Shown: piece after piece, positions 1,514 through 33,400 of the stretch
How positions within the stretch are numbered: the stretch's first letter is position 1
How the letters are laid out: every line of letters begins with the position of its first letter
DNA from: an uncultured virus (IMG/VR IMGVR_UViG_3300042483_000521)
Lineage: Duplodnaviria; Heunggongvirae; Uroviricota; Caudoviricetes
IMG/VR virus record: IMGVR_UViG_3300042483_000521
Length of the DNA: 64,000 bases
Direction: 5' to 3' (one strand)
Made by a program: the position numbers and the translations under genes
The notes under the pieces: model-generated
Told to the model about the DNA's origin: nothing
Databases searched by the model: none
What the model saw: the letters and a program-made list of their open reading frames with translations, nothing else

Positions 1514-1519
1514 AACCTA

Positions 1520-1898: not shown

Positions 1899-1944
1899 AT
1901 GGAGTTTTTGTTGGACGTTTTTATTCAATTCTGGCGAATAGTAG

Positions 1945-1976: not shown

Positions 1977-2013
1977 AGTTCATATATTTAATTCGCAAAA
2001 AACCAATATCTAA

Positions 2014-4675: not shown

Positions 4676-5105
4676 TGGTTTCTAATTTATATATTAATCT
4701 AAATGAAATGGCGTTTATACATTCTTCAATTGAAAGCTTTGATGTGTCTAAGCATAAGACATCTTCTTCGTCAGGAGTATCAAAGTCTTTAACATGAAAG
4801 TTTTCTCTCCCTCTTTCTCCAGAATAGATTAGATACACCCACAGAACATCATTAGTTAAAGAGTTGAGATATTCACGAGCTTCTTTGTATGGATACACTA
4901 ATGATAATACAACAGGCTCCCCTGCACTATTTAGATAATGAGCAATGTCACTTGCTCTATTCAAGTTCTTGATTCTACCCTCTCTGCTGTAATCTTTGTT
5001 GGAAAATAATTCCCTTAGTTTATCTCCATCTATGTTGTGAGCATTAAGCTCAGCTGCTAATGTAGACTTACCACTATGTGGCTGACCAAATAATACTATT
5101 ATCAT
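4668..5105 (-). CDS. cysC: Adenylyl-sulfate (APS) kinase-like protein
   Basis: P-loop GQPHSGKST, IDGDKLR (cf. LDGDNxR), YSREGRIKNLNRA (cf. FSxEDRxEN) and VVLSLVYPY. Shorter than canonical CysC. Confidence 0.75.
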   Translation of the reverse strand: MIIVLFGQPHSGKSTLAAELNAHNIDGDKLRELFSNKDYSREGRIKNLNRASDIAHYLNSAGEPVVLSLVYPYKEAREYLNSLTNDVLWVYLIYSGERGRENFHVKDFDTPDEEDVLCLDTSKLSIEECINAISFRLIYKLETNE

Positions 5106-5923
5106 TTGCTGTATCTGAATTGTTTAAAGAACCACTCATAGTTAGTCCAAATCCAATCTGTAACATCCTTCCCTAGCAATGCCTTAGCTCTTGAAGATAC
5201 AGGCTCTAGTTTTTTACGAATGACATGATCACCAAAAGCACCATAGATTTCATCATCTTCTTTTGTTACCTGCTCTATGTTATCAAAGTCGTGTTGGAAA
5301 TGAGGGATGTCTAAGTATCGATATATCCTCATCATCTCTGTATCAGGATACAAGCAAAGGTCTTCAAACTTAACAAATAAAATCTTCTCTGCAATACCTG
5401 TTCTGAACATCTCACTTAGTCTTTCAATTGCTAATCCAACAGGAGGAGATTGGGCCCAAATATCAATACGTTTTGGGACGGTTGTACCTTGACCTTTAGA
5501 CCAATCCAAAATGTCTGACTGCTTCTCAGGATGCTTTCTGAAGTTATTCTCCATTGAAGCAAAGATATCACGAAGGTCTCTAACCATACAGACTATCTTT
5601 GGCTCACCACCTTGAACAAACTGTAAGAAGTCATAGTGAATGCCCCATCCTCTGCTTTTGTCCACTACATACTTCTTGTCTGTAATAGCATTATAGAATG
5701 CATCTATTCCATTTTTTGCAAATGCTTGCCAACCTTTTTTCATTAGCTCAGCATCCTGTGCTTTAAATTCAGGAGAGTTAGTGTAGTTAGCTCTAGCACC
5801 AAAGACCAGCTCCAACACTCCTGATGTTGGTGTTGCATATATATCAGGGTTTTGAGCTAATATATTTTGCAACAATGTACTTCCGCTTCTAGGTAGGGAA
5901 GATTGATAAAATAATTTTTCCAT
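5102..5923 (-). CDS. PAPS-dependent sulfotransferase
   Basis: 5'-PSB loop SLPRSGSTLL, DKSRGW, 3'-PB motif VRDLRDIFASM and KFEDL. Confidence 0.85.
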   Translation of the reverse strand: MEKLFYQSSLPRSGSTLLQNILAQNPDIYATPTSGVLELVFGARANYTNSPEFKAQDAELMKKGWQAFAKNGIDAFYNAITDKKYVVDKSRGWGIHYDFLQFVQGGEPKIVCMVRDLRDIFASMENNFRKHPEKQSDILDWSKGQGTTVPKRIDIWAQSPPVGLAIERLSEMFRTGIAEKILFVKFEDLCLYPDTEMMRIYRYLDIPHFQHDFDNIEQVTKEDDEIYGAFGDHVIRKKLEPVSSRAKALLGKDVTDWIWTNYEWFFKQFRYSK

Positions 5924-12636: not shown

Positions 12637-15600
12637 TTATCTGATACCGTAATTAGATTGCATTCTAATACCAAGATCTTTTGCAATATCAGGGTAGAAC
12701 ATTGGTAGATATCCAACTATTTGATTTGTAATAGGGAATGTTCTTAAGAAATACTTCAAAGGTTTTGCTTTTTCTATTCTCTCGTCATCTGAAGTTAGCA
12801 CTCCATATAATTCATCTAGCGTCCCTCCTATTGTCTTTACAGCATTATTTATCAAAGAGAATGCTGGGAATGGTCCACTACCAACAAGGTTTAGAATAGA
12901 TGTTGGATTGTAGAAGTACATCAATTCATCAAGTAGTTTATCTCCAATCTTAGAGACAAACTTATGTTGGTTAACTACAGCTTTATCCTCATCATCATCT
13001 GGTGCCATTGCTGGGATGATTTGTGTTGTAAGAACTAGTAGAGTTGTTAAGAATATCATATCAGTAGCCATTGCTTTAACGTTTGACTGGAACAGTTCAA
13101 TGAACATGTCCTCAGTCATCTGAAGATATTCTCCTGTTTCTCTAAAGTGTTCTTGGTTTTTCATTTCGAATGATCTTCTAATAAGATCCATCCCTTTATC
13201 ATTTCCAGATAGAAGTCCCCAAAGACCATCTCTATTAGATGCTATATTCTTGTAGATGATTGACATGATCATTCTCATCCTTCCCCACTCATATGCTTCT
13301 GATGCAGAGTTATATTTAAGTCCTCCTAATCGAACATCTATAGGTCTTGGAATCCAGTTCTTGAACACCATGAATGACTTACCAATGATGTTCAAGTTTA
13401 TAGCTCTTAGATCATCTTCAGAAAGGTTACCTAATGCATCCTTACTAAGTTGTTGTACTTTTCTTCTTACGTCAAGTACACTATTTGAAAGTCTATCTAC
13501 ACCAGGAATAATGAATTCACCGTTCTCAACTTTAGCAAGTTTCATTACACCTTTTTCTTCGATTAACTTCTTTACATCTTGCTCAAACTTTTGATCATAC
13601 TGAGCTCTATCTTCAGTTGTTCCTTTGAATCTACCTTGATATTCAGGTAGGGATCTAAGATATTCTCTAGCATTAACCACTTTACCATCTACTACCACTG
13701 TATTTTTTAGAAATGCATAGAAGTTAGCAGTTTGAACAGCTCTATCAGCACTCTGCATTGCTATCATTATGATGTCTTGCACTCCTTGATCTGTAACAAC
13801 ATTAACAGAAAGTTGCTTAGCTATTTCTCTGTTGTAGTTATCTGTTAAGGGTTGAAAGTATGCTAAAGCTTTTAGGTATTTATTCTTGTCCTCACCATTG
13901 AATTTGTTAGTGAAGATTTGGAATTCAGCTCCAACAATATCAGTCTTATTAAAATATTTACCAGCGTTGATTACAGACTGAGCTGTACCACCAAATAAGT
14001 TAGAGATGGATGAACCAGCGTTAAAGCCTAGAGTGACTAAACTAAATGAGCTATTGAGACTTTCAACAACTTTGTTTAACGTCACTTGTCTTCCTTCTAG
14101 ATTTTCTGGGAAAACTTTTATGCCAATTTTCTCATTGATTGTTTTACCCCACCCACCAATCTTAAATAAAGCAGCATCTAGTTGAGCATTATCAACATAC
14201 TTTTGTCCATAGACAATTGCTTTAATCATACTATCCAAAAGCTCAACGTTTGTAAGAGATCCTGCTGATCCAACCTTATTGTATTGTAGTTGGTTGAATT
14301 CATCAAATTGAGCTCTACCAAGTAGAGATGTTGCTATGGTTTGTTTGTTACGTTCCACCTTAGCAATAGCTCTAACTTGATCTTCCACTTGAACAAGGTA
14401 TTTGTATCTAAACGCAGCTTCGTTATATATAGCCATGTTTCTAAACAAGTCTTCGCTGTAATCACCATCGTTAAACTTTGTGGTGAAATAAATTGGTACA
14501 GTGTTTAATATTTGACCATCTTCATCTCTTTGACCAAATCCAATATCTCCCTCATCAACTGAAATGCTTCTAAAGAATCTATCACCAAGTGATAATTCTT
14601 TTCCTGTAAGGGCTGCTTCAATCATGCTACTTCTAACAAATGGAAGAAACACCCTAGCTTCTTTTTTAGAGATGTACTTTAGGTCTGCAAATTTATCATT
14701 CTGTTCAATGATATAATCGTAGAATTCTTTTGCTGGAGCATTCTCAGGACTATTCAATCGTTTCCACTCTTCAGTTTCCCAAACATCTTTCTTAGGATGC
14801 TTTCTTAAAGAATCTCTTAAATACCATCCTAAAGATGAATCGTTATCAATATTATACTTCCTATCAGCTTGTCTTTGTTCTCTAGCAATATCTACTGCTT
14901 GTTGTTCAATATCACCCTCTCTACCTCCTTTATTTTTAATATACGTGTATTCTTTTTCTTTTTCTTTTTCAAGTTCTTCTCTAACACCTTCTAGATCAAG
15001 GTTCTCTTTCATCCATTCGATGTCAGAACTAGCTATAGCTTTGCTCAACTGTTTGTAGAACTCAGGATCATACTGATCAATAAGTTCGTTCTCATCCTTC
15101 TTCTTAATGTATGAGAATAATTCTTTCTGACTTAAGCCTTTTGAATTAGCCCAACTTAAAAATCTTTCTTTCACCTCAAGGAGCTTTCTATTAGCATCCT
15201 CTGTCATGTAGCTTGCTCTACCAAGAGCTTTATTAGCTTTTCTAAAAAGCAATTGAACAGACTTAATTTGTACAGTGGACGTGGAAGAAAACCATCTATT
15301 AAGCCACGAGATAAGTTTCTCAGGACTTAGGAAGTTCATGAAACCTTCTGGCTTTGCTACAGATTCAGCTACAAATTCTTTATTAATATTCTCAAGTTTT
15401 TCTTCATACGTACTCGCAACATCAGAAATTTTTAGAAGCTCATTGTACAAGTCATTGTCATCCTTGACAACTTCTCTTAAGCTCCTATTGATGTCTATGT
15501 AAGTTTTCATTGCAAACTCTGCATCATCTAGTTCTTTTAGAAATGCACTCTTGATTTCCTCAACTTGTTCATCATTTCCAACTTCTGACCAATCTTTATT

Positions 15601-18462
15601 TTTGTATTCATTCTCGTATCTCTCAACTAACTTTTCAATCTTCTTATTAAGAAGTGTAACTTGAGCGATTAAAGGTTTAACATTTCTTTGTATCTGAAGT
15701 CTTCGTATAGATCCAAATAAAGCATTTAGTGATTCTTTCTTTTCTCTACTATCATTAGGATCAGCTTTTTGCTTCTTCAACATACTGTACATGTCATTTA
15801 ATCTAGATAGGAATTTATCTAGATTTCTACTTCCAGTAAGTTCATCAGGAGTTGCTACAGGTAAGAGATACATTTCATCTTCCTCAACTTTAGTAACATC
15901 TACATCACCTATCTTGATTCCTGTCAATCTAGGTTCTTCAATTATAGCACCTTGCTTGTCCTTCTTACCTTTTGAGTATTTTGCAAGAATGGGAATCATT
16001 CGTGTTTCCTTGAAGTTTGCTGGTTCTACACCATAGTTCTTAGTAAGAATCTTCTTGTACTGATTCATTTGAATGTTCCAAGATTCAATCTTATACCAAG
16101 GCACATCAGTATAGAAGTCTGTGTTCAAGCTCATAAACTTCCAGTCAAGGATGTTCACACTCGCATCAGGTTCAATTGCTAAAAAGTCTATTGTACCACC
16201 AACACTTACACCATCGTAAATAGTAACCTCAGACATGAATCTTGTCTTAGCTGGGTAGGATGCAAGTCTTGCTTCTATGTGGTCTCTAATAGATAGGTAT
16301 ATATCCTGATCTCCTGTAAATGATTGATGGTTATCAGCTAGTTTATTTTCATTTCTAATTGTACTATCTTGAATAAAATATCCGTCCTCATCAGTAAATA
16401 GTTTGAACGCATGTTGAAAGTCAGCATGTCCAGCTGTTCCTTTTTCCTGTCTTAAGTCGTCAAGAAACTGATCGTATTCATCTTTAGGAAGATTGTTTGA
16501 CTTCTTCCATTTTTCATAAGAACCTTTTGCAAAGTCTGATACACGAAACTTAATTTCCTTACCATCTATAAAGTATCTCTGTTCACCTTTATCATTAAGT
16601 TTTGGCTCACCAATTTTATTAGAAATGCTTTTGATAAGGTCATAAACTTTTTCTTGTTGAGACTGCTGTAGAAATGTTGCATCTTCAGACTCTCTAATAT
16701 CAGCTGCTGTTCCAATGTCTTTTCCAGAAATGACATCAATAGCAGCTTGATCAAATCCTGACTTTTGATAGACAAGAGACTTCAACCACTCAAGAATATT
16801 CAACCACCAAGATTGAGCCTTCAATACATCGTCTTTACTTTCTCTAGTATTTTCAACTTTGGAAATGATTGTGTTAACTAAAACTTTTGCAATAGCTTCT
16901 TCCTTGATTTTAACAACATCAGGCTTTCCATCCTTTTGATAAAGTGGACTATTACCATATGTTTTAAAAACTTGGTTGAGCATATCATATCCATTAATCT
17001 CTTTCATAAGCTTTTGATAAAGCTTAGGGTTGGTTTGCTTGATAATGGATACAGCAAAGTGCATGGCTTCTTCTGGAAGAGCCTGTGCTTCTTTTCCTTC
17101 TACAACAGATATAAGTTTTTGCATTAACTGGGCAGCACCATTAGCATCTTGTGTTTGCCCATTAACACTAATTTTCTCCAACAACTTTATGTCAACACCA
17201 ATTTGTTTTATAAAGTCTTTAATTAATGCTAGAGTTTTTGGAGAAGCTGACGATGGTAAAGTTCTATCATCATTGACTTGTAACATTGGTCCAGACTCGT
17301 AGAACTGTCTTTGCATTTCAATTCTACTAAACTCAGTGTCCAAGATTTGTGAAGCAACAGACATTGCCTGATTATATAAACTAGGATTTGAATTCAGTCC
17401 TAGAATATTAATTAGGTAATTCATGATTTCCTCAAATAGGTTTGTGTATTTGATTCCATCAATTGGTGGTACAGATTGTAGAGCTGTGATGAATTTTGCA
17501 TCTGTAAACAATCCTACAATAAATTCATCTATTGTATAGTTTGCGTAATAGCCAGTTTTTGACTGACCATCATATTTACCAAGTGATTCAATTGCTGCAT
17601 CGTAAAGCTTCTCAAAGTCTCTACGAACTGTAGTATCTTCTCTAAGGGCAAAGTATGTGAATGCGTGGAGAATCTCATGTAGAAGTACAGTTTCAGATAA
17701 TCCATTTGCCACGTTTGCATTTTTAGCAATGAATATTTTATTCTTTGCAACGTCAAAATATCCTCTAGATTTTTCAACGCCTGGAGCAATATTTTGAAAG
17801 TGTGTAGTGTCAACTAACTCTACATCAACATTATTTATTTGAACAAAGCCTTTTAGTTTCTGAGCAACTTCTTTGAGTGGGTGTGATGAATTGCTTATTT
17901 TATTCAATATGGTTCCCACTTTGGTAACATTGCCATTTGGGAAATACTTAACACCAATTTTTATGTCAGGTCTTCCTACAGGTAATGCTTCACCTTTGGA
18001 TGCTTTAATCTTTACAATCTTTCTATTAGAAACCTTAGTGTTTACTATTTCAAATATATCTGGATGATTACTAGCAAGACGCTTCATCATCTCATAGTTT
18101 GGAGTGAAGACAGTCTTTAACTGCTCACTTGTAATAGCTAGAGATCCTCTGTTCGTAAATCCAGAGGTGATGAAGTTTGTATCGCCCAATGTGTGTATTA
18201 CACCTTTCAATAACTGTTTGATAGTCTTCTCTGAAAGTCTTGGGTTTTCACTAAGTATATAATTTATCTTTGATTCAATTGTTTTTTTATCAGACATGTA
18301 CCAATCAAGGAATTCCTTTTTTGTAGGGATATAGAATTCCCCATCAGGAAGGAGCTTGACTCTTTTTGAGTATGATCTTACGAACACCTCTGCTAAGCCT
18401 GCTCCATATTCCTTCTCAAGAACCTTGAAGTTCTTATCGTTTTTATTTACACAACTGATCAT
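12637..18462 (-). CDS. Large virion cargo (ejected) protein with zincin-like and PD-(D/E)XK nuclease-like domains
   Basis: LLHEILHA (HExxH) near 17670, degenerate EEAMH near 17070, and KGTAGH...SEVTIYD..GGTIDFL...ILDWK...QMNQY near 16050-16450. Coupled (TAATG) to the RNAP gene, as for crAss-like large cargo genes. Confidence 0.7.
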   Translation of the reverse strand: MISCVNKNDKNFKVLEKEYGAGLAEVFVRSYSKRVKLLPDGEFYIPTKKEFLDWYMSDKKTIESKINYILSENPRLSEKTIKQLLKGVIHTLGDTNFITSGFTNRGSLAITSEQLKTVFTPNYEMMKRLASNHPDIFEIVNTKVSNRKIVKIKASKGEALPVGRPDIKIGVKYFPNGNVTKVGTILNKISNSSHPLKEVAQKLKGFVQINNVDVELVDTTHFQNIAPGVEKSRGYFDVAKNKIFIAKNANVANGLSETVLLHEILHAFTYFALREDTTVRRDFEKLYDAAIESLGKYDGQSKTGYYANYTIDEFIVGLFTDAKFITALQSVPPIDGIKYTNLFEEIMNYLINILGLNSNPSLYNQAMSVASQILDTEFSRIEMQRQFYESGPMLQVNDDRTLPSSASPKTLALIKDFIKQIGVDIKLLEKISVNGQTQDANGAAQLMQKLISVVEGKEAQALPEEAMHFAVSIIKQTNPKLYQKLMKEINGYDMLNQVFKTYGNSPLYQKDGKPDVVKIKEEAIAKVLVNTIISKVENTRESKDDVLKAQSWWLNILEWLKSLVYQKSGFDQAAIDVISGKDIGTAADIRESEDATFLQQSQQEKVYDLIKSISNKIGEPKLNDKGEQRYFIDGKEIKFRVSDFAKGSYEKWKKSNNLPKDEYDQFLDDLRQEKGTAGHADFQHAFKLFTDEDGYFIQDSTIRNENKLADNHQSFTGDQDIYLSIRDHIEARLASYPAKTRFMSEVTIYDGVSVGGTIDFLAIEPDASVNILDWKFMSLNTDFYTDVPWYKIESWNIQMNQYKKILTKNYGVEPANFKETRMIPILAKYSKGKKDKQGAIIEEPRLTGIKIGDVDVTKVEEDEMYLLPVATPDELTGSRNLDKFLSRLNDMYSMLKKQKADPNDSREKKESLNALFGSIRRLQIQRNVKPLIAQVTLLNKKIEKLVERYENEYKNKDWSEVGNDEQVEEIKSAFLKELDDAEFAMKTYIDINRSLREVVKDDNDLYNELLKISDVASTYEEKLENINKEFVAESVAKPEGFMNFLSPEKLISWLNRWFSSTSTVQIKSVQLLFRKANKALGRASYMTEDANRKLLEVKERFLSWANSKGLSQKELFSYIKKKDENELIDQYDPEFYKQLSKAIASSDIEWMKENLDLEGVREELEKEKEKEYTYIKNKGGREGDIEQQAVDIAREQRQADRKYNIDNDSSLGWYLRDSLRKHPKKDVWETEEWKRLNSPENAPAKEFYDYIIEQNDKFADLKYISKKEARVFLPFVRSSMIEAALTGKELSLGDRFFRSISVDEGDIGFGQRDEDGQILNTVPIYFTTKFNDGDYSEDLFRNMAIYNEAAFRYKYLVQVEDQVRAIAKVERNKQTIATSLLGRAQFDEFNQLQYNKVGSAGSLTNVELLDSMIKAIVYGQKYVDNAQLDAALFKIGGWGKTINEKIGIKVFPENLEGRQVTLNKVVESLNSSFSLVTLGFNAGSSISNLFGGTAQSVINAGKYFNKTDIVGAEFQIFTNKFNGEDKNKYLKALAYFQPLTDNYNREIAKQLSVNVVTDQGVQDIIMIAMQSADRAVQTANFYAFLKNTVVVDGKVVNAREYLRSLPEYQGRFKGTTEDRAQYDQKFEQDVKKLIEEKGVMKLAKVENGEFIIPGVDRLSNSVLDVRRKVQQLSKDALGNLSEDDLRAINLNIIGKSFMVFKNWIPRPIDVRLGGLKYNSASEAYEWGRMRMIMSIIYKNIASNRDGLWGLLSGNDKGMDLIRRSFEMKNQEHFRETGEYLQMTEDMFIELFQSNVKAMATDMIFLTTLLVLTTQIIPAMAPDDDEDKAVVNQHKFVSKIGDKLLDELMYFYNPTSILNLVGSGPFPAFSLINNAVKTIGGTLDELYGVLTSDDERIEKAKPLKYFLRTFPITNQIVGYLPMFYPDIAKDLGIRMQSNYGIR

Positions 18463-21400
18463 TATAGTCTACACATTAACATTTCTATAAAGGTTCGCTC
18501 ACTAATTTCTGTTGGTAATTCATTATACTCAGAAATAATGTCTTGCAAAGAACCTAGCTTTAGCTTTTCGTCAGGAGTCAAGGATTCGTAGAAACTTCTA
18601 ACTCCTGATGCTGGTGCGTTAGATTCAGTAGACCAAGGTACGAAGCTTTCTTGACTTTCAGGAATGTAAGATGGTTCAGATTGAATTTCTTGTGAAGAAT
18701 AAAGCTCATCAGTACCAGCCTTTCTAGTAAAGACAAATGCAATCTTTGATGCTCTAGATAATCCAACATATTTCAACTGCTGTCTTTCGATAGCATATTT
18801 AACATCTCCATCAGAAATAACTCTGTTGTTTGCTGGGTTCTCCATGTTCTCATAATCATCAAAGACATACTGGTAAGTTGATCCTTGTCCTTTGTGAGAA
18901 GTTACAGCATAGCCATAGTCAATATTCTTAGCAAGCATTGGTCTTTCTGAAGTTGCAGTTTCTTCAAATAGAGTTTTTCCTGTTTGTCTATTCACTTTAA
19001 ATAACTCTGGATTCTCTTGTTTCAACTTAGGAAGAGTTGTAATTTTTCCTTTATAGCTAATCATGTCAGCAGGTAGCTGATAAGTGTTGAAGAAGCTTTC
19101 AAATTGATTAAGAGGATCTTGTCGAAGTTTCCAAGGAATTGTTTTATCATTCAATACCTTTTTGAATGCCAGCACTCGCTCCATGAATTTAAGGTTTCTA
19201 TCATCATTAGGGTTAATGATGAACACATCAAGTGGTCTAAGAAGAGCTGTCTGACCTGTATCATTTAGTAACTGCTCATCTTCTTTAGAGAACACTCTTC
19301 TCATTTGAACCTTATATCCAGAAACTTTCTCTTCAATGTTGAAGTATTTGTTTCCAACATTTCCATCAAACACTTTTACATCTCTATCAGTGATATACTG
19401 ACTCTCCAAGATTTTGTAATCCTGACCATTGTGAACGTTAGGTGTCTGACCAACTTGCTCATATCCCATCATGATAGATCCTACACCATAAGGTGAAAGT
19501 CCTAATTGAGACTGGATTAAGTTGTTGTAGTTAGCAACAGATGCATTGGTGTAAGTGAGCACCTTAGCGTATGTAGGATCTTCTTTATACTCAGGTGATT
19601 TGAAGTATTGAAGCATCTTGTCATTGAATGACAAGTAATCATTCGTGAACTCTACACCTTCTCCTCTACCATTTACATTAGTGCTGAAGCTAAATCTGTC
19701 AACCACTGTAGTTAGATTCTGACGAATGTTCGTAAGAATATCTAACAAAGGATTGTCTCCTTGCTGACGCATCACTTGAGTGAGTTCTACACCATCCTCA
19801 GAAGATGAGAACTGTAGAGCTTTACTCAATTGACTGCTTCCTACAGGAGGTAGTTGAGCTGGATCACCCATGAATATAACGGTTGTTCCTTTTCTCTTTG
19901 CTAGTCCCATCAATAAGTTATAGTCCTGTGCATCAATCATTGAGCTTTCGTCAACAATTAACACTCCAGAGTATGGCATTTTATCTTTTGGACCAGCAAT
20001 GAAGTCACCATCTTCTCCTTTAATTTTATTCAATAAACTTGCTGTTGTGAAAGGCATTGTGTTAAACACTTTACCACGAAGTAATTGAATTAGCAAATTG
20101 GTATTTGCCTTATGTGTAGGAGATGCATAGCTTACATCTTTGAATGATTTACTATTCTGTAAATATTCTCTTACGAATTTAGAAATAGTTGACTTACCTG
20201 TTCCAGCATACCCTCTAAGAACAAACTTTGTCTGGTTCTTTTTGATTGCATTTACAGCAAGTTGTAAAGCTTCTTTCTGTTGTTCATTAAGAGTGATGTT
20301 TCCTGTATTGATTACAGTGCCATCCTCAAACTTAAACGAGTTTCCACTAACCACTTCAGGTGCTTCCTCTTCTTCAATAAATGCATCTTCTGCAAAGAAT
20401 GGTTTGTTGCTCTGTGGGTCAACATTTGGATTTGCTGTATATGCATCAAGAAGCTTTTGTTTGGCATCTTCCTTTCCTTTGTAACCTTCTACATCAATTG
20501 CTTTACCATCTTGATCAATTACAATGTTGTAAAATCTTCCAAAGTATTTGAATGGCTTTGTTGTAGTGAACTCAACTTCTTCAACTTCTTCAACAGGAGT
20601 TGCAGCTTCTTGAACACCGTTTATGTAGTTTTCAAGTCTCTGAAGTTCTTGTTGTAAAAACTCATATGTTTGAGGAGCTCTTGTAGGAAGCTCTGCTAAG
20701 CCCACTCCTAGTTGAGGAATTATAAGTTTATTATACTTACCAGTGCTCCATGCAGCAATTGCTTTATCAATATCATCTTTGATGATTTTTTTATTTACAT
20801 CAAGTTCTGCATCAGTTTTGTAAGACTGTTCTGAATTAGCTGGTAATTTTTTTGTTGATACGCCAATTGCATTAGGCTCATTTCTCATTTCTTTAGCCTG
20901 ACCAGCAAGACCTTTTCTAGAATCATTGTCTCCAAATAAATACAATGTTTTAGGATTAGCTCTCAATTCTGATCTATTAATCATTCTTGTAGTGCGCTCA
21001 ACCTTACTAGTAATAGGTGTTACAACTTCTGGAACAGGAGCTAGCTCAGCTGCAACATCAATTTTCTCAGCTGTTTCAAGAGGATTGATAACTTCATTAT
21101 TTACAAATGCAATTATGTCACTATTTTGAATCTCCTTATCAACCTTGTAAGTGTTGTTGTTTATTGCAGAAGGCAGTCCATTTGTTTTGTAAATCTTAAC
21201 AAGATCACCATCTCCATACAAGTTCACCATTTTAAAATAGGTGTTACCTTTTTCATCTTCTAATGGTGCTCCAGCCAAATCTTTTACCTTTTGGTATCCA
21301 ACAATTTCTGATTTTGACAACTCACCATTTAGGACAAGCTTTTTGAAATTATCGTATGACATTGGGTTTTTCTCCCCAGTGATATCAATAATATATCCTC

Positions 21401-24400
21401 TAGCATATTGGTATCTAGTTACCTTCAAGAAGTCCATGTTAGAGTGATTAAACTTGTCATACTTCTTAGAAAGTCTTAACACTTTACCATTACCAGGCTT
21501 GGCTCCAATTTCTTTCATTGTAGCAAATCCTGAAGATTTATAATCAATATTTCCTTCAGTCACATTGTATCTTGGACTAAAGAAAGGAACCACCTTATCG
21601 TCAGAGAAATTAGTTCTGAAGAAAGCACCATTCCTAGAGAAGTCCTTGATATTCTCAAATGAATAATTTGAATTAATCACTGGAGCAATAATCTCAGCTC
21701 TATCTTCTAGAGGAATAACTTTATTGATGTTGATTTTTGTTTCATAGGTTCCTTGTAACAAGTTAACCAATAACAAGTTGTTGTAAAACTCAGGCTCATA
21801 AGCCTTAAGTTCTCTCATCAATCCAATATATCTATTTACAGAAGCAGCATCTTTTGGTTTAACCTTCAGTGAAACAGTTACTGCACCACCCTCGTGATTA
21901 GAGAATCTAGGTTCAAGGTTTGATAAGAGTTCACTACTTGGATACTTGTTCTGCAAATTTGCAAGTTGTACTGCAATATTATTCTTACCAATCACTAGGT
22001 CATCTATAATTTCCTTAGAGAATCTAGTAGACTTGTTTTGTGTAAGGTAATCAATGAATGAAGTTTTAACCTTTCTAGCCACTCTATCAAAGTCATCGAT
22101 TGACATGTACTCATCGTTAACAAAAGGTTTCATCACCTCATCTATCACGCTATAGAATACATCTGCATCTAGCTTGAATATTGCACTCAATGCTTTCACT
22201 TCTTCAATGATCAATCTTTTTTGATCACCAATGAATGTTTGTTTGAATACATCATTGATTGAAGAAATAATATTCTTCTCTTCAGCAGTTTCTGTTCTAG
22301 CAACCTTTCTAAGTACACTCTCAGTGGTTCTTACACGAGTGGTGTCATAGTTGTATGCCTGAGTGAATTTAAAGCTATACTGACCCATCTTAGAGAGTCT
22401 GAGGAACTCATTAAGTACAGCTCTCTGCTTAAGATTAAATTCATCATTTCTCTCAGCTGTTATATCAATAGACGATAGTAGGTTTGCTTTTGATTTTTCA
22501 AAATCTACCAATCCTGTATTCTGATCTACAACAAAGTCTTGCTTCAAGTTGTAGCTCTTACCAAATTCTATAGGATACATAGCATCTATCTCTGCGATAT
22601 TATTTTTAGAGAATAGTGATCTACTACCAATTCTATCAAGATACTTCAAGTAGTCGATGATAATAGGTTGATTTAAGAAGTATGGTGTAAGTTCACCAAC
22701 ACCTATGCGTTCCATAAACATTGCTGTACTAACAACCAAGTCGCTTCTCAAGATCTTCATGATGTATGGATCTTTTGCAACGTCTACGAATGCTGTAGCA
22801 TATCCAGATAGTCTGTCTGATATGAACTCGAATACACTCTTACCTTCTTTATCTTTCTTAGAATAAGCAGTGGTTCTACCACCAAGAGCAATCATCTTCT
22901 GACCATCTACCTCTACAGTATTGTGAGGGACAGCAAGAGACATGTCTCCTAAGAAGCTAGCATCGTATGCATCTATATCATTAAGTCTTCTTGGATCTAG
23001 ATAAGCATTGATCTTCTGTGCAATGGAATGTCCTGTAATATTAACAGCAGCAATACCCACCCACTTCTTACCAAGTAAGAATGCATGTCTGAGAGATGTT
23101 AAGAATGTCTTTGATAGAAGTTTATTCTTAAACGTAGCTTCTTCATCTTGTCTAGCTTTATCAAGTTCTTTAGCAACCTCTGGTAAATTAGCATCACCTA
23201 CAGGAGTTAGTAGTCTTTCAAAGTTTTCAGGAAGAGTAACTATTTCTTGAAGTAGTTCAAAGTATCTATTCTCAAGAGACTTCTTATACATCAAGTCTAC
23301 AAAGTCTTTTTTCATAGACTCGCTTAACTGCTTCTCTGTTAGCTTTGTATATTTATCAGCCAGTCTACCTATCTGATCACCAATGTAGTCAGAAGGTTTT
23401 TGCTTTTTAGAAACAGCAACATTGATAATGTTATTAATCGTCTGCTGTTTTTTAGTATAGAATTTGGAAAGTTTATCACCAAGAACAGATTTCAATGCTT
23501 CACCAGTCATTGATGAAGGGTCTTCTATAGATTCAAGAATTTCAAAAACATCAATCAAGTTGTTTCTAAACTCATCTCCAGATTCAATTTTGTCTATTTC
23601 ATTTTTGATCTGCTCATCATAAACTTTTGCATAGAAGTCCATAGTAGCTTTTTTGCTACCCTTGTACTCTATAAGTTTTACGTCTCCATTCTGATCAACA
23701 TAAACTGCTTTCAGATACATGTTGAGCTTATCAATATCAAAGTCAGATCCTGCTTTCTGTACAATCTCAGAAGGAACAACAACTGTAGATCCCATAGATG
23801 GATGTAAGAATCCCTTAACCTTAAATACTTCTGTAGAAGAAGCTGCTTGGTGAGGAATACGAAATCCTATACCAAACAAGATTTTTTGGTTCTCTGGTTT
23901 ATTAAGATATTCTAGAATTTGCTCATCAGACATTCCTTTAAAGTATCTCTTCCAGAAGTTTGGAATCATTACTTCAATGTGTCTTTCTCCTGGCTTATCT
24001 TCATAGAACTTAAGAGTGTCACTGGAAAGTAGGACACTTTTCTTGTTTTCATCAGATAGTTTTTCGTATTCATCTTTACTAATCTCTACGTATCCATCTT
24101 TTGTCTTTCTTAGTATTCTTCTTCCCTTGTCTCTATTCTCCCAAAGTGTAGCTGCAACCTGTACGTGAGGTTTACCCTCCATTGGTGGAGAGATCAATGA
24201 CTTGTTTATTATTGAAAACAATACACTTCTAATGTCTTCGTATGCAGAAGAAGCTTCGAATGGAATTCCAAACTGACCATTCTCATTCAAACGAATTGTA
24301 TCGATTACGTTTTCAGAAGCTTCTCTTCTTAGAAGTTCGTATTCAAGAGTTTGAGAAACTTTCTTAGCATCTTTAATTCTATATAAATCACCCAAGTCTT

Positions 24401-27400
24401 CAATTCCAAGATTCTCTAAGAACTTCTCATACTGGAACTGGTGGAACTCATCGTGAGTTTTTGTAATATCATCATACAATTCTTGTGCGCCATCCATAAC
24501 AGACTTGCCATATTGGAACATATCCAAAGATGCGTTCTTCATTGGTTGGCTACCTCTAGTCTGTTGCTTGCCTTCTTCGTAACTGTTTTCAACTTGAATA
24601 CCATAAGTACTCCATGCAACATTCTCAATAGTGTTACCACCAAAGTTTGAAGAGTTAAATGTACCATTACCATTATACACATTGTGTGTATCTCTCACAC
24701 CCTCTTTTCTACCAGATCTATACACAACATATCCTACACCCTCTTCTAACATTTGAGTGTATAGGTCTTGTAAATGAGTGCCTTCAATTGCTTTAAAGAA
24801 CAATGGCATTTGAGAGAACTTATCAATGGTTCCTTCAATTCTACCAAGTTCTGGTTTTGCTCCAGATACAATTGGCTTCAATACTTCTAGAACATAATAT
24901 GGTTCTGGTTTCTTAATCAGAGCTGCGTCATGATTTTCAAGTGCTGAGTTCTTGCCATAGTTGTATACAAACTTTCCATCAGCTTTCTTGATTTTAGAAA
25001 GCTTCTGTCTAGTGTATGCCATTTGCCATTGATACCAATTCTCAGCTTCTTTTGGCCACTCAGCATTCTTCCATTTAACTTCTCTGAATGTTCCTATTCC
25101 AATAAGAGAGAAACCATCAGATTCTTTATAGTTACCAAATGAATCTAAATATCTAGACTGAGGAGTTGGATCAGTTAATGTTACTGTCTTTACATAAGAG
25201 TTAAAGTTGTGTCTGGTGATATCATTTCCAGATAGGACAATATCATCAGTAACTTTATTGTATTTCTTATTCAAGAAATCATTTGCTGCCTCGCTATCAA
25301 ATGTTTTTCTTCTTGGAGAAAGCCATGATTTAATACGCTTGGTTTCTTCAAGATTACCATTCTTAACTTCGAACTGATAAGGATCACCAAAGATGAACTT
25401 GTGAAGTTCAATGTTGGCAATCATTTGATTCATATTAAGGAATGACAAAAACTTATTGTAATCTTCATTACTGATTTTATTCTTGTCAATCTTATTTTTC
25501 TCAGCAAATTCTGAATCAAGATATGAGAAGTCAACGCTGTTCTCATCAACTTGAGAAACCTCACCAGTAGATGTTAGTGCTTTGTTAAGCTTATCATTTT
25601 GATATGCTATAGTTTCTCTAATAGAAGATTCCACCTCACTCTTATTATCACTAAGAATCTTAGAGATTTCTGCAAGTGCTTTTTCTTTAGAAAGTTTAGT
25701 TTTTGCAATTACACCTTCAATACTTTTTACTAATGATGGGCTTAGAATTTCTTTAAAGAAACGAAGCTCTTTAGCTCTGTCTCCTACAGCTGAAAGTTTG
25801 CTTCTGTTTCTCCAGTCTAGAGCAAGATTAATTTCGTCATCTAGATAGGAGCGCATTATATCAAAGAACTCAGAGTCACCTATCTCAGTGTTTGTATTTT
25901 CAAACTTGATCTGGTTACCAATGTTGTAAGTTCTTTCTGTAGCAGAGTCTGCTGGTACAAGAATGTAATAGTTTCCTTTTACGTTTTGATTTATCTCTAC
26001 GCTGAATCTTTCTCCTTCTGTTAATCCAGAAACAGTTGTTCCACCATCTTCTTCAGAGATGCCATCTACGACACCAATCTTTAGAATCTTACCTTTGATT
26101 TTGTTACCTTCTTTATCAAAGAATAGTCCACCCTTCTTGATGATTAAACTATTCTGTGAGAAAGCGTCTTTTAGTTCAGGACGCTTTTTAAATAACTCAT
26201 CAAGTGTCTGTGCATCATTGAAGTCTTCTTCAAATACAGACACAGCATTGCTATCTGAATAGTTTCCAGTTCGTTTGTTCTCAACATTGAATCTTGTAGT
26301 ATCTTGATCTGGATTTAAAGAATCAACATACATTACAGCAAGCTTAGTGATTGAGCTGTCTGCACCTAAGAATTTTTTAAAGTTTGCTAAGTTCTTACTT
26401 CCGTATTCGTAAATTCTGTTAACCGCATCTACAAATTCATCTTCGTTTGTAATTGCTGCACCAGGAAATGTAATACCTATGTTTGCTAGAAACTCAAGTC
26501 TCTCAGTATTTGTAGAAGGTCTCTTCTTAGGATATTTAGAATGCTCAGTGTCGATAAAGAAGTTTTGATTCTTCTGATCAATGATTGAACCACCTTGTCT
26601 ACCAAGCACCTTAATGTTAGAAAGCCAGTTGTACTTCTGTACATTGATTGCTGATGACTTGTCTGCTGGCTTAGTGATAACACTTACACCCTCAGGACTA
26701 GCTGTTCTTTCCTCAACAGTTGCATCTGGTCTACTCTTATTAAATGCTTGAACAAATTGGATGTATAATCTCCAATCATTGTCTGTGAAGTTTCCAAAAT
26801 CAAATAGTTCTTCAGCATCTTCAGCAGACATGTTACCATTCAATGATCGAGCAACTCTATAGTAGTTACCATCATTCTTGTACAGCTCCATCAACTTTGC
26901 TGGAATCTTTGAAATAGGAGTGTTAGAAAGTTTGGAAAGTAGCGTAGCAAATGTTCTATTGAAATTAGAAAGAACAGGAAGACCCACTGCACCAGTTTTC
27001 AAAGCAGGCAAACCTGTTTCTGGATCTAGCTCACTCTTACTAGCAGAAGGTAATGTAGCTAGTATATACTTGATAGCAAAACTAGCGTTCTTCATCAAGT
27101 CCACTTCAAATGCTTCTGGGGAATACAATCTATTGTTTCCTTGCTCATCATTCACTGATAGTAGAGAATCTGTATCAATGTTAACACCTAATGGTCTTAA
27201 ATTATCAACGCTTCTCAAGAACAGCTCATTGAATAGTTTGTCACCAAGAGCTTGTAAGTTACCAGTCCCTTCGTAAATATTTCTAATAAAATTATAAACC
27301 TCAGTTCCAGTTACACCTTTTATATTAAATACGTTAGCAACAGTATCATCATTTCCTCTGTTCAATAGATATCCAGATGTACTGATAACCATGTCCTGAA

Positions 27401-30400
27401 CAATGTTGTACGCTTCATCTTCTGATAGAATAGCTCCATCAGGAAGTTTCATAACTGGTCTATATTCAGGCTGAGCTGTTTTTACATAATCAGGAAGTAC
27501 TGACTCTTTAAATCTTCCAGCTTCAATCTCATCAAAGAGTTGTTGCTTCAAAGAAGGATTGTTAACAAAGCTCTTGAAGAACTCAATGATAGCATTGAAG
27601 AATCTTTTAATCTTTTCAGACAATGTTCTAGCTGGAAGCTTTCCCAGTCTGTAATCAGCAAAGTCATCAGCAATACGTTCTTTAACTTGTCTGTCTGTGG
27701 CTTCAGAAAAAGCAATCTGTTGACCAGACTCTCTATCTAAGAAGTAGCCAGGTCTATTTTTAAACTCATCAATAAGTGCAGCTCTTTCTGACTCTGAAAG
27801 AAATCCCTTCCATATAGCTTCAAATATTTCATGATACTCTGTACCACGCAAACCACGTTTGAAGAACTTAGCAACTCCTCCTTCAAACACACCCCATGCA
27901 ACAATACCATCAAGTGATTTGTAAATCTGTTCAAGGATTTCATAAGGTATAAATGGTACTTTCTCAGCATGCCATTTTTTAAATGCTTTAATGTCTCTAT
28001 CAGAGATTCTCTCAGCAAATAATTCTCCTTTTGATACAGCTCTTGTATCACTGTATCCAGACTTGAATTTACCTTTGTTAGATTTTGGAGGTGCTTCAGC
28101 AGCTTGTTGTCTTGCAAGATCTACGTTCTTCATTCTTGCCTCACCTTCTAAAGAAGCTAGTTCATCATATTTAGTATTAATTTTAACTTTAACATCTTCA
28201 GGAGTATTGCCTTCTATTTGGTTATTGTTTCCACCAAAATATAATCCAGTGAGTAAATCTTTAGTTATAGGTTTATTTAGCTCTTCTTCTCTTCTTCTTT
28301 CTATATCAGCTTTCTTAGCTTCTATGCCAGAGACGGGTGCAGCAGCTTCAGTAGGTGCAGTACCTACTAAAGTAGACAGCTCGTCTTCTGCCCTTCTAAT
28401 CTCCTCTTTTGCAGATGCAATTATTGATTGTTGTGAATCTTTATTTGGATAATCAGCTGATTCATAAATCTTAAGATCTTCCTTAAGAGCAGGTATTCTT
28501 TCTTTCAAATAATCCGTTCTGTAAAGAGATACGTAATTTAATATTTCACCCTTTTCAAAAACTCGTTGACTTTCTTCAGTTTTTTGTTTTGTAGATTCTT
28601 CAAATAACTGTATTAATTTTTTAGGTAAATATTTATCAACAATTTGTTTTGCTTTATCTTTAGTTATATTCCTATCAAAAACATAACCATCTTTAGCTTT
28701 AGTTAAAACTTCCCACCTACCTTTTTGAAAATAAGCTAAAAATTCTTGTTTTTCACCTTTAACAGTTACATGATAAAATTTTTCAGATTGTGTAGGTTCG
28801 TAAACCTGAATAACATTATCTAATCCAAGTTCTTTTTTCTTAGACTCTATACCAGAAACTGTTGGGGCTGCTGGAGCAACAGGAGCTGGGGCTGGAGCTT
28901 CTTGCTCAGCCTTGAGAGCTTTGTTGATCTTAGCTGTTATTTGATATCTAAAGAATTCAACAATAGTATCTTCTTTGGAAGAACTTTCATTCAGCTGAGG
29001 AATAGCTGCTCTATATGTATTTAATGTTTCTTCTGAAATTACAGCAGCAACATTCTCAAAAGATTTTTGATTTGCTTCTGTTCTAAAATCTAAATCCACT
29101 TTAATCTGTCCCTTCTCATTCACTGTTCCAATGAATTCAATAGGTTGCTTAGACACTTCTACAACATTTGTAGAACCATTGTTAAGCGTGAAATCTCCCA
29201 CCTTCAATGCTGGAAGAGCTTCAGCTACTTCTGAAGGAGAATTACTTTCAGACTTACTTTCTATAGGAGGAGCTACTGGAGCTTTTTCTTCTTGAGCTTC
29301 TGGGGCTGTGAAGTTTGTATTCTTTTCACCTACAGTGAAGTTTGATATATATGCATACTTACCTCTAAAGTTGTAAGGAAGTGCGTCAGATTTCTTTCTA
29401 ACATTAGTTACAAATGGTACCTCATCTACAGATCTATCTGTTCCAGATAGTAAGTAAGATTGATAGTTTGGCCACTTGACAAATTCTAGTTTACCATCCT
29501 TGAAGACAAACTCGTAATGAGCTTCAGCCTTATCTAGTAATCTTTTATTTGCAGAATGATATACGCTAGAGAAAGCTTTGATAACGTCTGCTTCATTCTT
29601 CAAGAAATCACTGAATGAATATGAATTGTTACCAAGCATTACAGACATAGAATCAATATCAATCCATAATTGATTATTCAACATGTCTTTTGTAGGACGT
29701 GCATAAATCATTACAGATCCTAAATACTTAAGTTTTTGTCTATCTAACTGTATAGGTTTATCATTAGTTGCTTGTTGCTGCATGTCATTGATGAGTGACT
29801 TAATCACTTCATACACTGACTTGCCTTTCTTAGCACCTAACAAGTTATTATTAAGAACCTGTAGCATATCTCTATCTTGTAGATACACTATTCCAGGTTT
29901 AGCATTCATGTTCTCACCACTGTGTACAATAGGAGTTCCTGTTGAAATCTTCAACAGTCCTGATTGAGTTTCAATTTGAGACTCTGTAATAAGGGTGTCA
30001 CCTACTTTATTCTTAACATATTTTCCATCTACTTTTTCAGTGATTAATGGAAAACCTTTAGAGATCATGAATGAATTAGTAGGAAGATCTTTTGCAGCCA
30101 TTGGAGCAATTTGTTTAGCAGGATTGCCTAACAAGATTTCTCTCTGCTGCTTCCAAGTTTCCATGTTCTTCATGAACTCTTCTTTCTCACGAGTTCTGAA
30201 TCTATCACCATCAGCACTACTGTACTCTACTGCTGTAGGACGTGTCTCAAATACAACTTTCCCTAGATCAACTTGTTGACCCACTTTTACATCCTTACCA
30301 TCAGCACCTTTTATTCTATTGCCATTCTGGTCAATAAAATATCTGTTCTTGCCATCAACCTCTACATACACTTGTGCTACGAATCCATTAATGAGGTCAT

Positions 30401-33400
30401 TAACAGTTCCTTTTTGAGTTTCCCAATTAGCACCGTAGGATAGTTGTGTAACTCCAGAAAGTCCAAGATCATTCTCTTGGTTGTACGTAAATGTTATAGC
30501 TCTAAACTTATCTCTATTCTTATTGCTCTTAGCATTATTCAAAAATACTCTAGCACGAATAATGTGTGGAGAAGGATTAGGATTGTAATATTTATAATTA
30601 GGATCATCAGATTCATTACTACTTGCGTTGAAGAATCTAGCAGCAGATTTTAAAGGACCAGTTTCTCCTGTATCAATTCGTGTATCGAATGGAATCAGCT
30701 CAACCTTTGGATCAGTTGATGCTTGAGCCTCTTCATCTTGTTGACTATCAATGTCAGAGCTTTGCTCTTTTATTTTTTCATCAATTTCTTTCTGCTTAGC
30801 TTTTGCCTCAAGAATATCTTTAGTAAGTCTTTTGAATCTATTTACAACAGCTTCGCTGAGCTTTTGATTGCCAAGAGAGTTAATGTATGCAAGTTTGTTT
30901 ACCTTTTCTCCTGGCTTCTCAATAACGTCTCTGAAGGCAGGATATTGAAGTACGTCATCAATAGATTGATTCAATGCATTTTCAAATTCCTGGGAAGTGT
31001 TGTCTTCTTCAGATATGTTATATGTTTTAAACTCTAGTGGTGAAAGAAATACTTCTTTACCATTAGGAAGTCTCACCTCAAACTCTCCACCTAATGTTTC
31101 AGAAATTATTGTAAACTTTGGAGCAAGTGTTATTTTACCATTCTCAAGTCTAATAGGCTCAGCCAAAGAATATTCTTGACCTACCTTTAAAGTTTTTACT
31201 ACTGACTTTCCACCTTCTTGTTGAGTGACATCTACAGGTCCTTTCTCACGAAACCTTTCAGCTCTACTAAAAACTTCAAAAACTTCTGGGTCTTTCTTAA
31301 TATCATTATAATCATCAATGAACACTTTTCTTCTAAGTGACATCTCAATCAAGTCTGATAGAGATCTTTTCAAGTTATCCTTAACATCGCTAACAACATC
31401 CATTGCATTGATTTGATCAATGGATTCTTTTACAGCTTCAATGGTAGGCTTATCTGATACTAAAACATCATTCAGAATTGTAGAAATGTTAATACCTGCG
31501 CTAGACAACACTGATGTCAATGCTGGGATTCTTGCTGAATAGTCATCAATCTTACTTGCTGCATAAACAAGTTTATCAATCACTACAGGATTGTATTTTC
31601 TTACAGGTCTTCCTTTTGCATCTTCAATAATATTACCTTCATCATCTGTCTTGAAGACACCTGCATAGGTTTCATTAATATTATCGTAGTGCTTTTCTAC
31701 AGCCTTTGCTGTATTCTCAAGGTTTCCAATTCTTTGTACAAATTGGGCAGGTGATTCTTTTTCAAAAGCAACACCAGCAGTTTGCAATTCCGCAAAGCCT
31801 TGTGGATTTAATGCTTGTTCTTTGTAAGAACTAAGTTCTTCATAAACATTTTCCATCTTACCATACTTTGCACGAGGCATTAAGTATGATAGAGAGTAGT
31901 CAGCTTCGTAATCTTTTTCTGAAAGAATATCATTGTTCTCTATTGCTTGCTGTCGCATTGCTTGAGAACCTATACCAACAGCTAAGAAGTTAGCTTGGTC
32001 TTTTAATGATGCTTCAATGTTTGTCTCATTCAGTTGCTTGAGAGCAATATCAGTGTTTCTTTTTCTTTGTCCACCTTTACCAGTAAGACCTTCTCTATAA
32101 ATAGACATTGGTGCTTGCTGAATACCTCCAGCAAGAGAACCAATCAATATACTTTCAATACCTTCTTTTGTACTTAGAGTTTTATCAATACCTTCTCCAA
32201 ATACATTTCCCATTGCTCCAGAAACAGTTTCTAGGAATGTTCCAAGATCTTCTTTATTGGTATAAGCTCTATTAAAATAATCATCGACACCTGAGGCAAT
32301 TGCAAACTGCATCCCTTCTTCAGCAGCTTCTGTTGGCTGAATAAAGAATCTACCTAAACCTTTTGTTGTATCTACTATTTTTCCAAATCTTGTTTTTGGA
32401 ACCAGTTCAGCAAACTCTTTACCAAGTCCTTTTTGTGTTAAGTCATTGATGAACGCCTTCTCCACTTTTCTAGAAGAACCTAAGATTTTAGGAAGTTGAA
32501 TATAGTTTGATGCAGTTAGAAGAACAGTATTCATACCCCATACATAATTACCTGCCTTTTCAGCAAATGCATTTATGTCATCAAGATCTCTTCCTGTTGG
32601 GTCTATACCATTTTGTCTTCTGAACTCAGCAATAGCATTATCCCTAAACTCATTTGATTTTTGCAAAGATTCAATGGAAGCTTCACCAAACGTACCCATG
32701 ACAGACGTTAATGTACGCTGTCCATTATTTGTAATTTGTGATTTTATACCTTGAGAAAGATTTCCTAACGCACCTTCAATAGCTGATATTTTTTGTGCTC
32801 TAGGAACAACCTGCATAGCCTTCTCAATAGTAGCAGCAGTTTCTGCACCTTTACCAAGTCTAACTAAAGCATTTGCTTTACCAATTAATTTAAATGCTTT
32901 AGTCCAAGCAGCACCACCAGCTATGGAACCAATTCCATAACCAATATTTTTTATAACCTTATCAGCCCAAAAGTTAGGAGTTAGCAAGTTATCTGATTGC
33001 CACCATTCAGCATCTGTCTCAGCTTGTCTATAATAGTTAGGTGCAAAGTCCTCCATACCACTTTGAATTCTATCCATCAACTGTGTTGTAGGATTATCAT
33101 AAAGTTTGGAAAACTTTTGATTAGCAATTGAAGAACCTACACCATTAAGAAATCCAACAGTACCAGATATAAAAGACGTGCCTGCAATACCCACTGCTTT
33201 TCCAAGACCATTTCGATACTGATCAAAAGTAGACTGTTTTTGCGCAGCCATTTCTTCGAAATTAGTAAATGGTCTTGTTTTTTCATATCTACTACCCCCA
33301 GAATAAAAAGAAGAAACAGGAATGTTCTGGGCTCCAGTAAATCTATTTTGCTCAGCTAATTTAGCAAAAGCTTCCCTTGGAGAAGGAAGTTCTCCAGGCA

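Follow-up and report, generated by a model that had tools for sequence, protein, structure and literature searches.

An optional Dda-like helicase cassette in the virion RNA polymerase polyprotein of a crAss-like phage

The DNA considered here is a stretch of 64,000 nucleotides (the window) from an uncultured virus of the Caudoviricetes (IMG/VR IMGVR_UViG_3300042483_000521), and the subject is one of its genes, P0001, which encodes a putative virion RNA polymerase polyprotein of 5,007 amino acids (aa) with a Dda-like helicase near its C-terminus. The helicase is a real, intact and widespread yet optional cassette in a crAss-type virion polymerase polyprotein, and N4-type polymerases provide a parallel. 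Its place is a C-terminal cargo bay; it keeps the reading frame, is complete and conserved, and can be swapped. It is probably an aid in the opening minutes of infection and does not belong to the core of the polymerase. The probability that it serves as an optional, co-injected 5'-3' translocase easing early transcription is put at about one half.

The polymerase-helicase fusion

The window belongs to the genome of a freshwater crassvirus. Its capsid, portal, two ring proteins and muzzle all match crAss or phage families, and among the Pfam families present are those of the Crass capsid, the muzzle and rings 1 and 2. A complete near relative, G002 (108,291 bases, with terminal repeats), was used as a stand-in for the whole genome. 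The initial annotation had described a single uninterrupted frame of 5,007 aa holding a DFDID polymerase centre and the canonical motifs of a superfamily 1B (SF1B) helicase, and all eight motifs were found in the order claimed:

18462..33485, minus strand: virion RNA polymerase polyprotein gene P0001, 5,007 aa with no internal stop (gp67-like cargo region, degenerate zincin, gp66-like polymerase, cargo domains)
23730-23744, minus strand: DFDID polymerase centre (aa 3248)
18714..20306, minus strand: Dda-like SF1B helicase, aa 4394-4924, with all motifs (PHROG, T4 Dda and fold matches)
20187-20213, minus strand: GYAGTGKST (aa 4425)
20106-20123, minus strand: SPTHKA, helicase motif in the open reading frame (ORF)
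19938-19952, minus strand: DESSM, helicase motif in the ORF
19842-19868, minus strand: GDPAQLPPV, helicase motif in the ORF
19764-19784, minus strand: LTQVMRQ, helicase motif in the ORF
18876-18902, minus strand: TSHKGQGST, helicase motif in the ORF
18750-18770, minus strand: YVGLSRA, helicase motif in the ORF

The polymerase is of the crAss virion type, as had been proposed, with the DFDID centre, homology to phi14:2 gp66 (tblastn E 8e-14) and a position within the gp67-gp66-gp65 block of a crassvirus. The placing of the helicase at the C-terminus of the polymerase stands in that the two share a frame with the helicase downstream; they are not directly joined, however, as a DUF7831 domain and a small domain lie between them and 83 residues follow the helicase.

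The helicase was matched to PHROG 325 'Dda-like helicase' with an E value of 2.7e-70 and to T4 Dda by sequence with an E value of 3.4e-18. An AlphaFold model (67 input sequences; predicted local distance difference test, pLDDT, 93.6) predicts the two RecA-like domains, pin hairpin and 2B domain of the SF1B fold, in a form closest to Dda, and Foldseek ranked T4 Dda (E 3.2e-24, template modelling score 0.72 on the target) above RecD2 (5e-16) and Pif1 (5e-15). T4 Dda (PDB 3UPU) is thus the best match in both sequence and fold and shares the motif order and the pin hairpin, although at 439 aa against 531 it is some 90 residues shorter and the two are 19% identical when structurally aligned. T4 Dda is a free monomer that works with gp32, whereas the window helicase is part of a 5,007-aa putative virion protein. 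RecD and RecD2 enzymes are marked by an N-terminal RecD or RecD2 domain or by RecBC partners. No such Pfam family was detected in the ORF and none of these marks was found among the 36 G002 proteins scanned against PHROGs, and membership of the RecD/RecD2 group was rejected.

That the helicase is complete, as the initial annotation had it, is supported by the presence in order of the Q motif and motifs I, Ia, II, III, IV, V and VI with their catalytic residues. In 69 fused copies the Walker A motif, the DE of motif II, the GD..Q of motif III and the arginine of motif IV are invariant (69/69), and the QG of motif V and the arginine of motif VI are kept in 68, an invariance that is partly by construction, since motif patterns supplied the seeds for 59 of the 69 copies and degenerate ones could have escaped. 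The pin column is aromatic in 38 of the 69. Codon changes between the window and G002 number 11 synonymous and 0 non-synonymous in the helicase, as compared with 77 and 29 in the polymerase; these numbers are small, yet they suggest purifying selection on the helicase and fit an active enzyme. The domain accordingly looks complete and active from its sequence. Its guanine-cytosine content, overall and at third codon positions, is 0.363/0.297 as against 0.352/0.291 for the polymerase, and this match therefore gives no sign of recent foreign origin. No convincing DNA repeats were found flanking the cassette, the best pairs being about 70% identical over 24-43 nucleotides.

Further evidence that the fusion is real came from independent assemblies. 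The stretch was found in 20 of the 22 listed runs, from 17 studies of lake water, freshwater or unspecified metagenomes (one of the runs may be the source run). Four runs were compared over the stretch, with assembled contigs rather than raw reads as the material. A contig of run X7, from another study, bridges positions 17500-28100 without a gap, with 200 letters differing, while the contigs of X4, X9 and X10 cover the stretch in pieces. Seven more assembled proteins (P0002-P0008) are full-length fusions with helicases 92-100% identical to that of the window, and G002 has the same fusion in an ORF of 5,054 aa. The initial annotation had allowed for a misassembly or a stop between the domains; neither was seen, the X7 contig spanning both polymerase and helicase, and misassembly is rejected because of this contig and the further assembled fusions. 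The window is itself a metagenomic assembly and was compared with contigs only, but an assembly artefact or dead domain is scarcely credible in the face of a gap-free contig from another study, the seven other full-length fusions, a RefSeq genome of the same design, intact motifs and helicase changes that are synonymous only.

That RefSeq genome is cr118_1 (Besingivirus coli, Suoliviridae), whose gp14 (YP_010110531.1) is a single gene of 4,946 aa with a DxDxD polymerase, a C-terminal Dda-like helicase and a terminal cysteine. Its helicase is 27% identical to that of the window and belongs to a different clade, and its zincin motif is intact. In the record (NC_055872.1, L009:11382-26222) the fusion is labelled 'exonuclease V' or 'DNA helicase', and similar labels are found on JGI records. 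No description of a polymerase-helicase fusion was found in the literature searched, including the accessible text of Drobysheva et al., Yutin 2021, Bayfield 2023, Iyer 2017 and PMC11502894. Yutin 2021 lists an SF1 helicase among conserved genes, and its Figure 3, in which domains of this gene block are coloured, or one of its supplementary files might show the fusion; the accessible text of Zheng 2023 makes no mention of a helicase. The fusion is thus probably undescribed in print, while already on record in RefSeq (cr118_1), unremarked.

Distribution and exchange of the helicase

A helicase query among proteins of 2,753-8,763 aa gave 50 matches. The DxDxD polymerase motif is present in 47 of these, with the helicase downstream of it in 45 and upstream in 2. 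Among the best 150 representatives (50% clustering) 50 carry the crAss-type polymerase core and 3 an N4-type polymerase (by local search), while 66 fall short of 700 aa and the remaining 31 are longer proteins of other kinds or fragments. A query with the polymerase core gave 720 matches, the best 120 of which are referred to here as the nearest relatives. The view of the fusion as a rare or integral design is not supported: the cassette is present in 31 of the 120 nearest relatives and has been repeatedly gained, lost and swapped, its slot is common to repair and counter-defence domains, and the helicase is missing from 11 of 14 related genomes that are at least 90% complete, the other 3 having a full-length Dda-like gene.

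A tree of 121 cores (119 of the best 120 relatives and two others, P0130 being omitted as its motif is off pattern) requires 17 changes in helicase presence, whereas 200 shuffles required 29.3 on average and never fewer than 23, so the helicase appears to be inherited but often gained or lost. Three helicase families fill the slot. Within the window's own family the compared pairs show 64-96% identity, and the other two families share 22-27% identity with the window helicase. In P0005 the core is 62% identical to that of the window but the helicase 96%, which points to recent exchange. One fused protein of 3,581 aa, P0019, has the source name of a Spirosoma terrae protein and lies on a contig of 574 kb; it is probably a prophage, which hints at a culturable Bacteroidota host.

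On a tree of 168 helicases there are 12 changes between the free and fused states (shuffles: mean 39.3, minimum 30). Approximately unbiased (AU) tests on a chosen subset of 44 sequences rejected a single clade of all fused helicases (p-AU 0.0005) and likewise the separate monophyly of crAss-fused and N4-fused copies (p-AU 0.0001). The AU test speaks against a single origin of the three helicase families among close relatives (0.005), whereas the Shimodaira-Hasegawa test does not (0.109), the constrained search being incomplete. The N4-fused copies form one clade among the crAss-fused copies, and the direction of transfer depends on the root. N4 virion-polymerase domains were detected with Pfam in P0037 and in 4 of 12 further long proteins, three of them strongly. 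In the N4-type polymerases P0037, P0249, P0254 and P0275 the helicase is N-terminal of the polymerase and there is no terminal cysteine, or no cysteine at all; P0215, P0272, P0267 and P0284 belong to the same group by tree position.

Viral contigs were also scanned, for which an alignment query was required, single-protein queries giving 1 and 2 loci. In 49 related virus records there are 6 full-length Dda-like matches, all in the polymerase gene (one split across the record ends), and no free-standing Dda-like gene. Ten other matches to the Dda profile in these records are short (at most about 105 profile positions), with E values of 2.8e-7 or weaker, in ORFs of 217-453 aa. Because the 49 records hold no free-standing copy, mutual exclusion between fused and free-standing Dda is not demonstrable. 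G002 has a Dda-like copy in the fused form only, plus separate DnaB-like and other helicases, a primase and a polymerase, and the presence of these separate replication helicases therefore suggests that the slot of the helicase matters.

Polyprotein architecture and packaging

The remaining parts of the polyprotein, and the gene that follows it, are as follows:

29286..33485, minus strand: aa 1-1400, homologue of crAss001 gp47 and of phi14:2 gp67, each encoded by a cargo gene of its own in those phages (family profile A1)
28086..28988, minus strand: first variable bay, aa ~1500-1800, where coverage by relatives drops, mostly deleted in frame in other strains
27456..28058, minus strand: zincin-like domain whose metal motif is altered to HEIFE, 27819-27833 (HExxH in distant relatives)
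21036..27338, minus strand: gp66-like RNA polymerase with the catalytic DFDID at 23730-23744 (tblastn, family profile)
20649..20990, minus strand: DUF7831 domain, an optional cassette (Pfam PF25176, E 2e-33)
20391..20588, minus strand: small domain without known function, also in distant helicase-bearing polyproteins (BLASTP, 27-98% identity)
18465..18713, minus strand: C-terminal tail (from sequence) with Cys5005 (18471-18473), the sole cysteine of the protein
12637..18462, minus strand: next gene, 1,941 aa, gp65/gp49-like cargo protein (crAss001 gp49 E 1.9e-6; phi14:2 gp65 E 0.029)

The anatomy was mapped with a profile built from 12 relatives, which links the DFDID region to phi14:2 gp66 and crAss001 gp50 and gives a weak N-terminal match to phi14:2 gp67. 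Family profile A1 matched crAss001 gp47 aa 48-885 (E 2.4e-49) and phi14:2 gp67 aa 33-165 (E 1.6e-7). Since the N-terminal part resembles gp47/gp67 and the DFDID part gp66/gp50, a single chain here combines what the cultured phages encode as two of their three cargo genes. A phmmer search of PDB with the polymerase region (aa ~1500-4350) gave no match at E 1, and so the link to gp66 rests on tblastn and the family profile. The phi14:2 (bioRxiv 10.1101/2020.03.07.982082) and crAss001 (PMC10172136) systems share the DFDxD core, the three-part cargo block and the pattern of terminal cysteines with the window. Their polymerases are shorter (phi14:2 gp66 2,180 aa, crAss001 gp50 2,412 aa), whereas here the gp67-like and gp66-like parts are joined and DUF7831 and the helicase are added; a fused helicase is not mentioned in the accessible text of either paper.

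Coverage by 113 relatives is high over aa 1-1450 and again over aa 1800-4100. It collapses in two places, at aa 1500-1800 (down to 3 of 113 at aa 1601-1700) and beyond aa 4150, and these are two variable bays. The first has no Pfam match under E 0.01. The second contains, in order, DUF7831, the small domain (which belongs to no Pfam family), the helicase and the 83-residue tail. Changes of cassette that keep the frame are also seen between strains. In contigs of 3 of the 4 runs, positions 28326-28883 (558 bases) are replaced by 24 letters, and in one X9 contig 485 different letters replace the 434 that hold DUF7831 (20588-21021). DUF7831 may possibly be macrodomain-like, a lead that rests on its motifs FGDN..G.AGQA and IPQLGVG, which we take to recall macrodomain signatures, and on atlas leads below 0.9 (A1S_2505 family, 0.87; a cluster with 11% Macro, 0.81). 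A single-sequence model of the domain is of low confidence (pLDDT 55.6), and no known fold matched it at Z of at least 5; there was no Macro match in Pfam at E 10, and a sequence search of PDB gave one match, at chance level.

The zincin motif is HExxE in 115 of the 120 nearest relatives and HExxH in 4, with no match in 1. Despite the changed motif the domain is strongly conserved, with 14 synonymous and 0 non-synonymous changes against G002, and the conservation of HExxE suggests a changed ligand set or a structural role. Because HEIFE replaces HExxH, self-cleavage by this domain is doubtful; the following gene does encode an intact HExxH (aa 262).

The polyprotein appears by analogy to work like the polyvalent proteins described by Iyer et al. 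2017 (PMC5512222), giant late-gene proteins delivered at invasion in which an RNA polymerase and a zincin-like domain are accompanied by swappable enzymes. Several unrelated enzymatic domains of variable architecture are likewise found here in one late-gene protein, although the zincin motif is altered and the HExxH that is common, though not universal, among such proteins is not in the same chain. In the accessible text of that paper the N4-like virion polymerases have zincin, ART, lysozyme or PBECR domains, the helicases named are SWI2/SNF2 or UvrD, and RecD, SF1, NADAR and Cellulophaga are unmentioned.

P0001 has one cysteine, residue 5005 of 5007, and the next product also has one, residue 4, so that the two lie at facing ends of the proteins (18451-18473). 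A cysteine is present in the last six residues of 120 of 120 relatives, against 38 internal cysteines in 526,866 residues, and the next-gene product begins with a cysteine in 46 of 46 loci in which this gene was found. In phi14:2 the full pattern is seen (gp67 Cys1797; gp66 Cys3 and Cys2179; gp65 Cys3) and the rule holds also in crAss001; where gp67 and gp66 are fused, the cysteine pair between them is missing. The types of tail and following head pair consistently (L011-L064), as ..ILKSIC/MATCP.., ..KINEC/MAHCV.. and ..KLKECY/MACIN..; these fixed pairs resemble docking modules, though adjacency alone could explain them. At L043:23211-24815 an extra protein of about 534 aa with a cysteine at both ends separates the polymerase gene from the gene that usually follows it, as if inserted as a further link of a chain. 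In the pre-ejectosome of cyanopodophage A4 a disulfide joins gp27 Cys1715 to gp26 Cys5, that is, the C-terminus of one protein to the N-terminus of the next (PMC12002296). The cysteines here (Cys5005, Cys4) are in like positions, and a head-to-tail disulfide chain of ejected cargo is possible by analogy. The accessible text of the A4 paper makes no mention of crAss, and nothing relevant to the cysteine pattern was found in the literature searched, the main text of two crAss structure papers being silent on it.

The insertion of the helicase upstream of this conserved terminal cysteine argues for packaging. Members of this clade that have the helicase always carry it within the polymerase gene, in the structural operon, and never in the replication module. 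The homologues gp66, gp67 and gp65 of phi14:2 and gp47, gp49 and gp50 of crAss001 are reported as virion proteins (record notes; PMC10172136). Co-injection of the polymerase with the helicase is likely, to judge from gene position and the cultured homologues.

Elsewhere in the window, positions 2014-5923 hold a cluster of genes for a two-domain glycosyltransferase, a cytidylyltransferase-like protein, an adenylylsulfate kinase and a sulfotransferase, perhaps for sulfated glycan modification of the particle or host surface; G002 has more glycosyltransferase- and methyltransferase-like genes. A cargo-block protein of 1,375 aa with a lytic transglycosylase (SLT) domain is encoded at 38881-43008 and is ~990 aa in G002, so it too is variable. 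G002 also carries homologues of rIIA and rIIB and a UvsX-like recombinase (L004:12688-16547), in a crAss-like genome.

Possible roles of the helicase

The initial annotation was right that phi14:2 gp66 favours single-stranded templates: according to the accessible text of the paper this enzyme barely transcribes duplex DNA in vitro (bioRxiv 10.1101/2020.03.07.982082). The N4 virion RNA polymerase (vRNAP) is likewise reported to favour single-stranded DNA, and N4 to depend on host gyrase. If the helicase eases early transcription, it would be made late together with the structural genes, packed in the particle, and ejected partly unfolded with the polymerase. It would then refold inside the cell, still tethered to the polymerase, and use ATP to move 5'-3' on one strand of the incoming genome. 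The polymerase travels 3'-5' on the template, which is 5'-3' on the other strand, and an SF1B motor tethered to it and running along the displaced strand would therefore be expected to move with it. The helicase could in this way widen the bubble or hold it open and displace bound proteins in front of a polymerase that is weak on duplex DNA, improving early transcription under some hosts or conditions; it would not be required, because most relatives manage without it. The finding of the same kind of helicase in both unrelated polymerase classes, crAss-type and N4-type, speaks for such a role.

Several observations weigh against it. Most relatives transcribe their early genes with no gene of the Dda type at all, which is the strongest objection to the idea of the initial annotation. 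The helicase is missing from 89 of the best 120 of the 720 polymerase relatives and from the 11 near-complete genomes mentioned above. The cores of P0057, P0058 and P0059 are identical, and the helicase is present in P0057 and P0059 and not in P0058. As the helicase is optional, and missing from the polymerase genes of phi14:2 and crAss001, opening of the template cannot be the general mode of these polymerases. The diversity of the families in the slot, together with the upstream position in 2 of 47 proteins, means that no fitted interface is apparent. Some related polyproteins carry other cargo, which points to a general delivery bay: by precomputed Pfam matches the best 120 relatives include AlkB in 7, DUF7831 in 11, NADAR in 2 and ART in 1, and AlkB and DUF7831 sit in the same C-terminal bay in two polyproteins that were scanned. 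Finally, SF1B enzymes require a single-stranded loading site, and therefore the helicase alone cannot explain the first opening of a promoter.

The main rival explanation is that the polymerase is a mere carrier for a packaged, active helicase that strips host defence or nucleoid proteins or R-loops, or that aids repair of modified DNA. We consider this possible but appreciably less probable than an effect on early transcription. It is favoured by the repair and counter-defence character of the co-cargo just listed, by gain, loss and swapping as rapid as the 17 presence changes on the 121-leaf tree, which is typical of conflict modules, by the polyvalent-protein model proposed for N4-like polymerases (PMC5512222), and by the reported properties of Dda, a monomeric 5'-3' helicase that also strips proteins off DNA (PMC11551737). 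The helicase is, however, far commoner than other recognised cargo (31 of the best 120), it has been recruited many times and to two polymerase classes that both favour single strands, and no defence system was identified as its target. Which of the three roles put forward in the initial annotation (template opening, genome pulling and clearing of host proteins) holds cannot be told from the sequence, and easing transcription overlaps with clearing in a way that sequence cannot separate.

A later role, with the helicase freed from the polymerase by proteolysis or an internal start and acting as an accessory helicase in replication or recombination, the fusion being a form of gene storage, seems unlikely. 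Free-standing relatives do exist, for example in Carjivirus communis, cleavage of such polyproteins has been suggested (bioRxiv 10.1101/2020.03.07.982082), the HExxH of the next gene is intact, and there is an in-frame GTG at 20354, 16 codons ahead of the helicase domain. This GTG follows a purine-rich poly-Glu stretch, though, unlike the seven real starts inspected, whose leaders are AT-rich; moreover the zincin motif of the same chain is changed to HEIFE, the gene is in the structural operon apart from the replication genes, and none of the 49 related records has a free-standing copy. More improbable still is a role as an entry motor, in which the helicase, held by the ejected chain, would draw the genome into the cell. 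The processivity of Dda is low and it tracks single strands, whereas the incoming genome is duplex, and an entry motor should be conserved although most relatives are without the helicase. These points count against a motor even though the helicase is tied to the ejection cargo, pulling by transcription has been proposed for the N4 vRNAP, and the terminal cysteine could anchor the chain in the manner of A4 (PMC12002296).

A bolder version of the transcriptional role can be drawn from the same evidence. The same kind of 5'-3' helicase would have been acquired again and again by two unrelated classes of injected polymerase, each of which transcribes duplex DNA poorly, and it would run on the non-template strand in the direction of the polymerase. 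The result might be a self-contained unwinding and transcribing machine, independent of host gyrase and single-stranded DNA-binding protein, that perhaps also reels in the genome and forms one link of a disulfide-chained ejection thread. We regard this as doubtful.

Whichever role applies, the importance of the helicase is limited because the cassette is optional. The fusion nonetheless bears on how the crAss-like and N4-like virion polymerases obtain a single-stranded template in the cell. Natural polymerase-helicase chains and near-identical relatives without the helicase make a matched pair for the question of what a tethered helicase does. The largest protein of crassviruses emerges as a modular delivery platform that annotations such as the 'exonuclease V' of RefSeq have overlooked.

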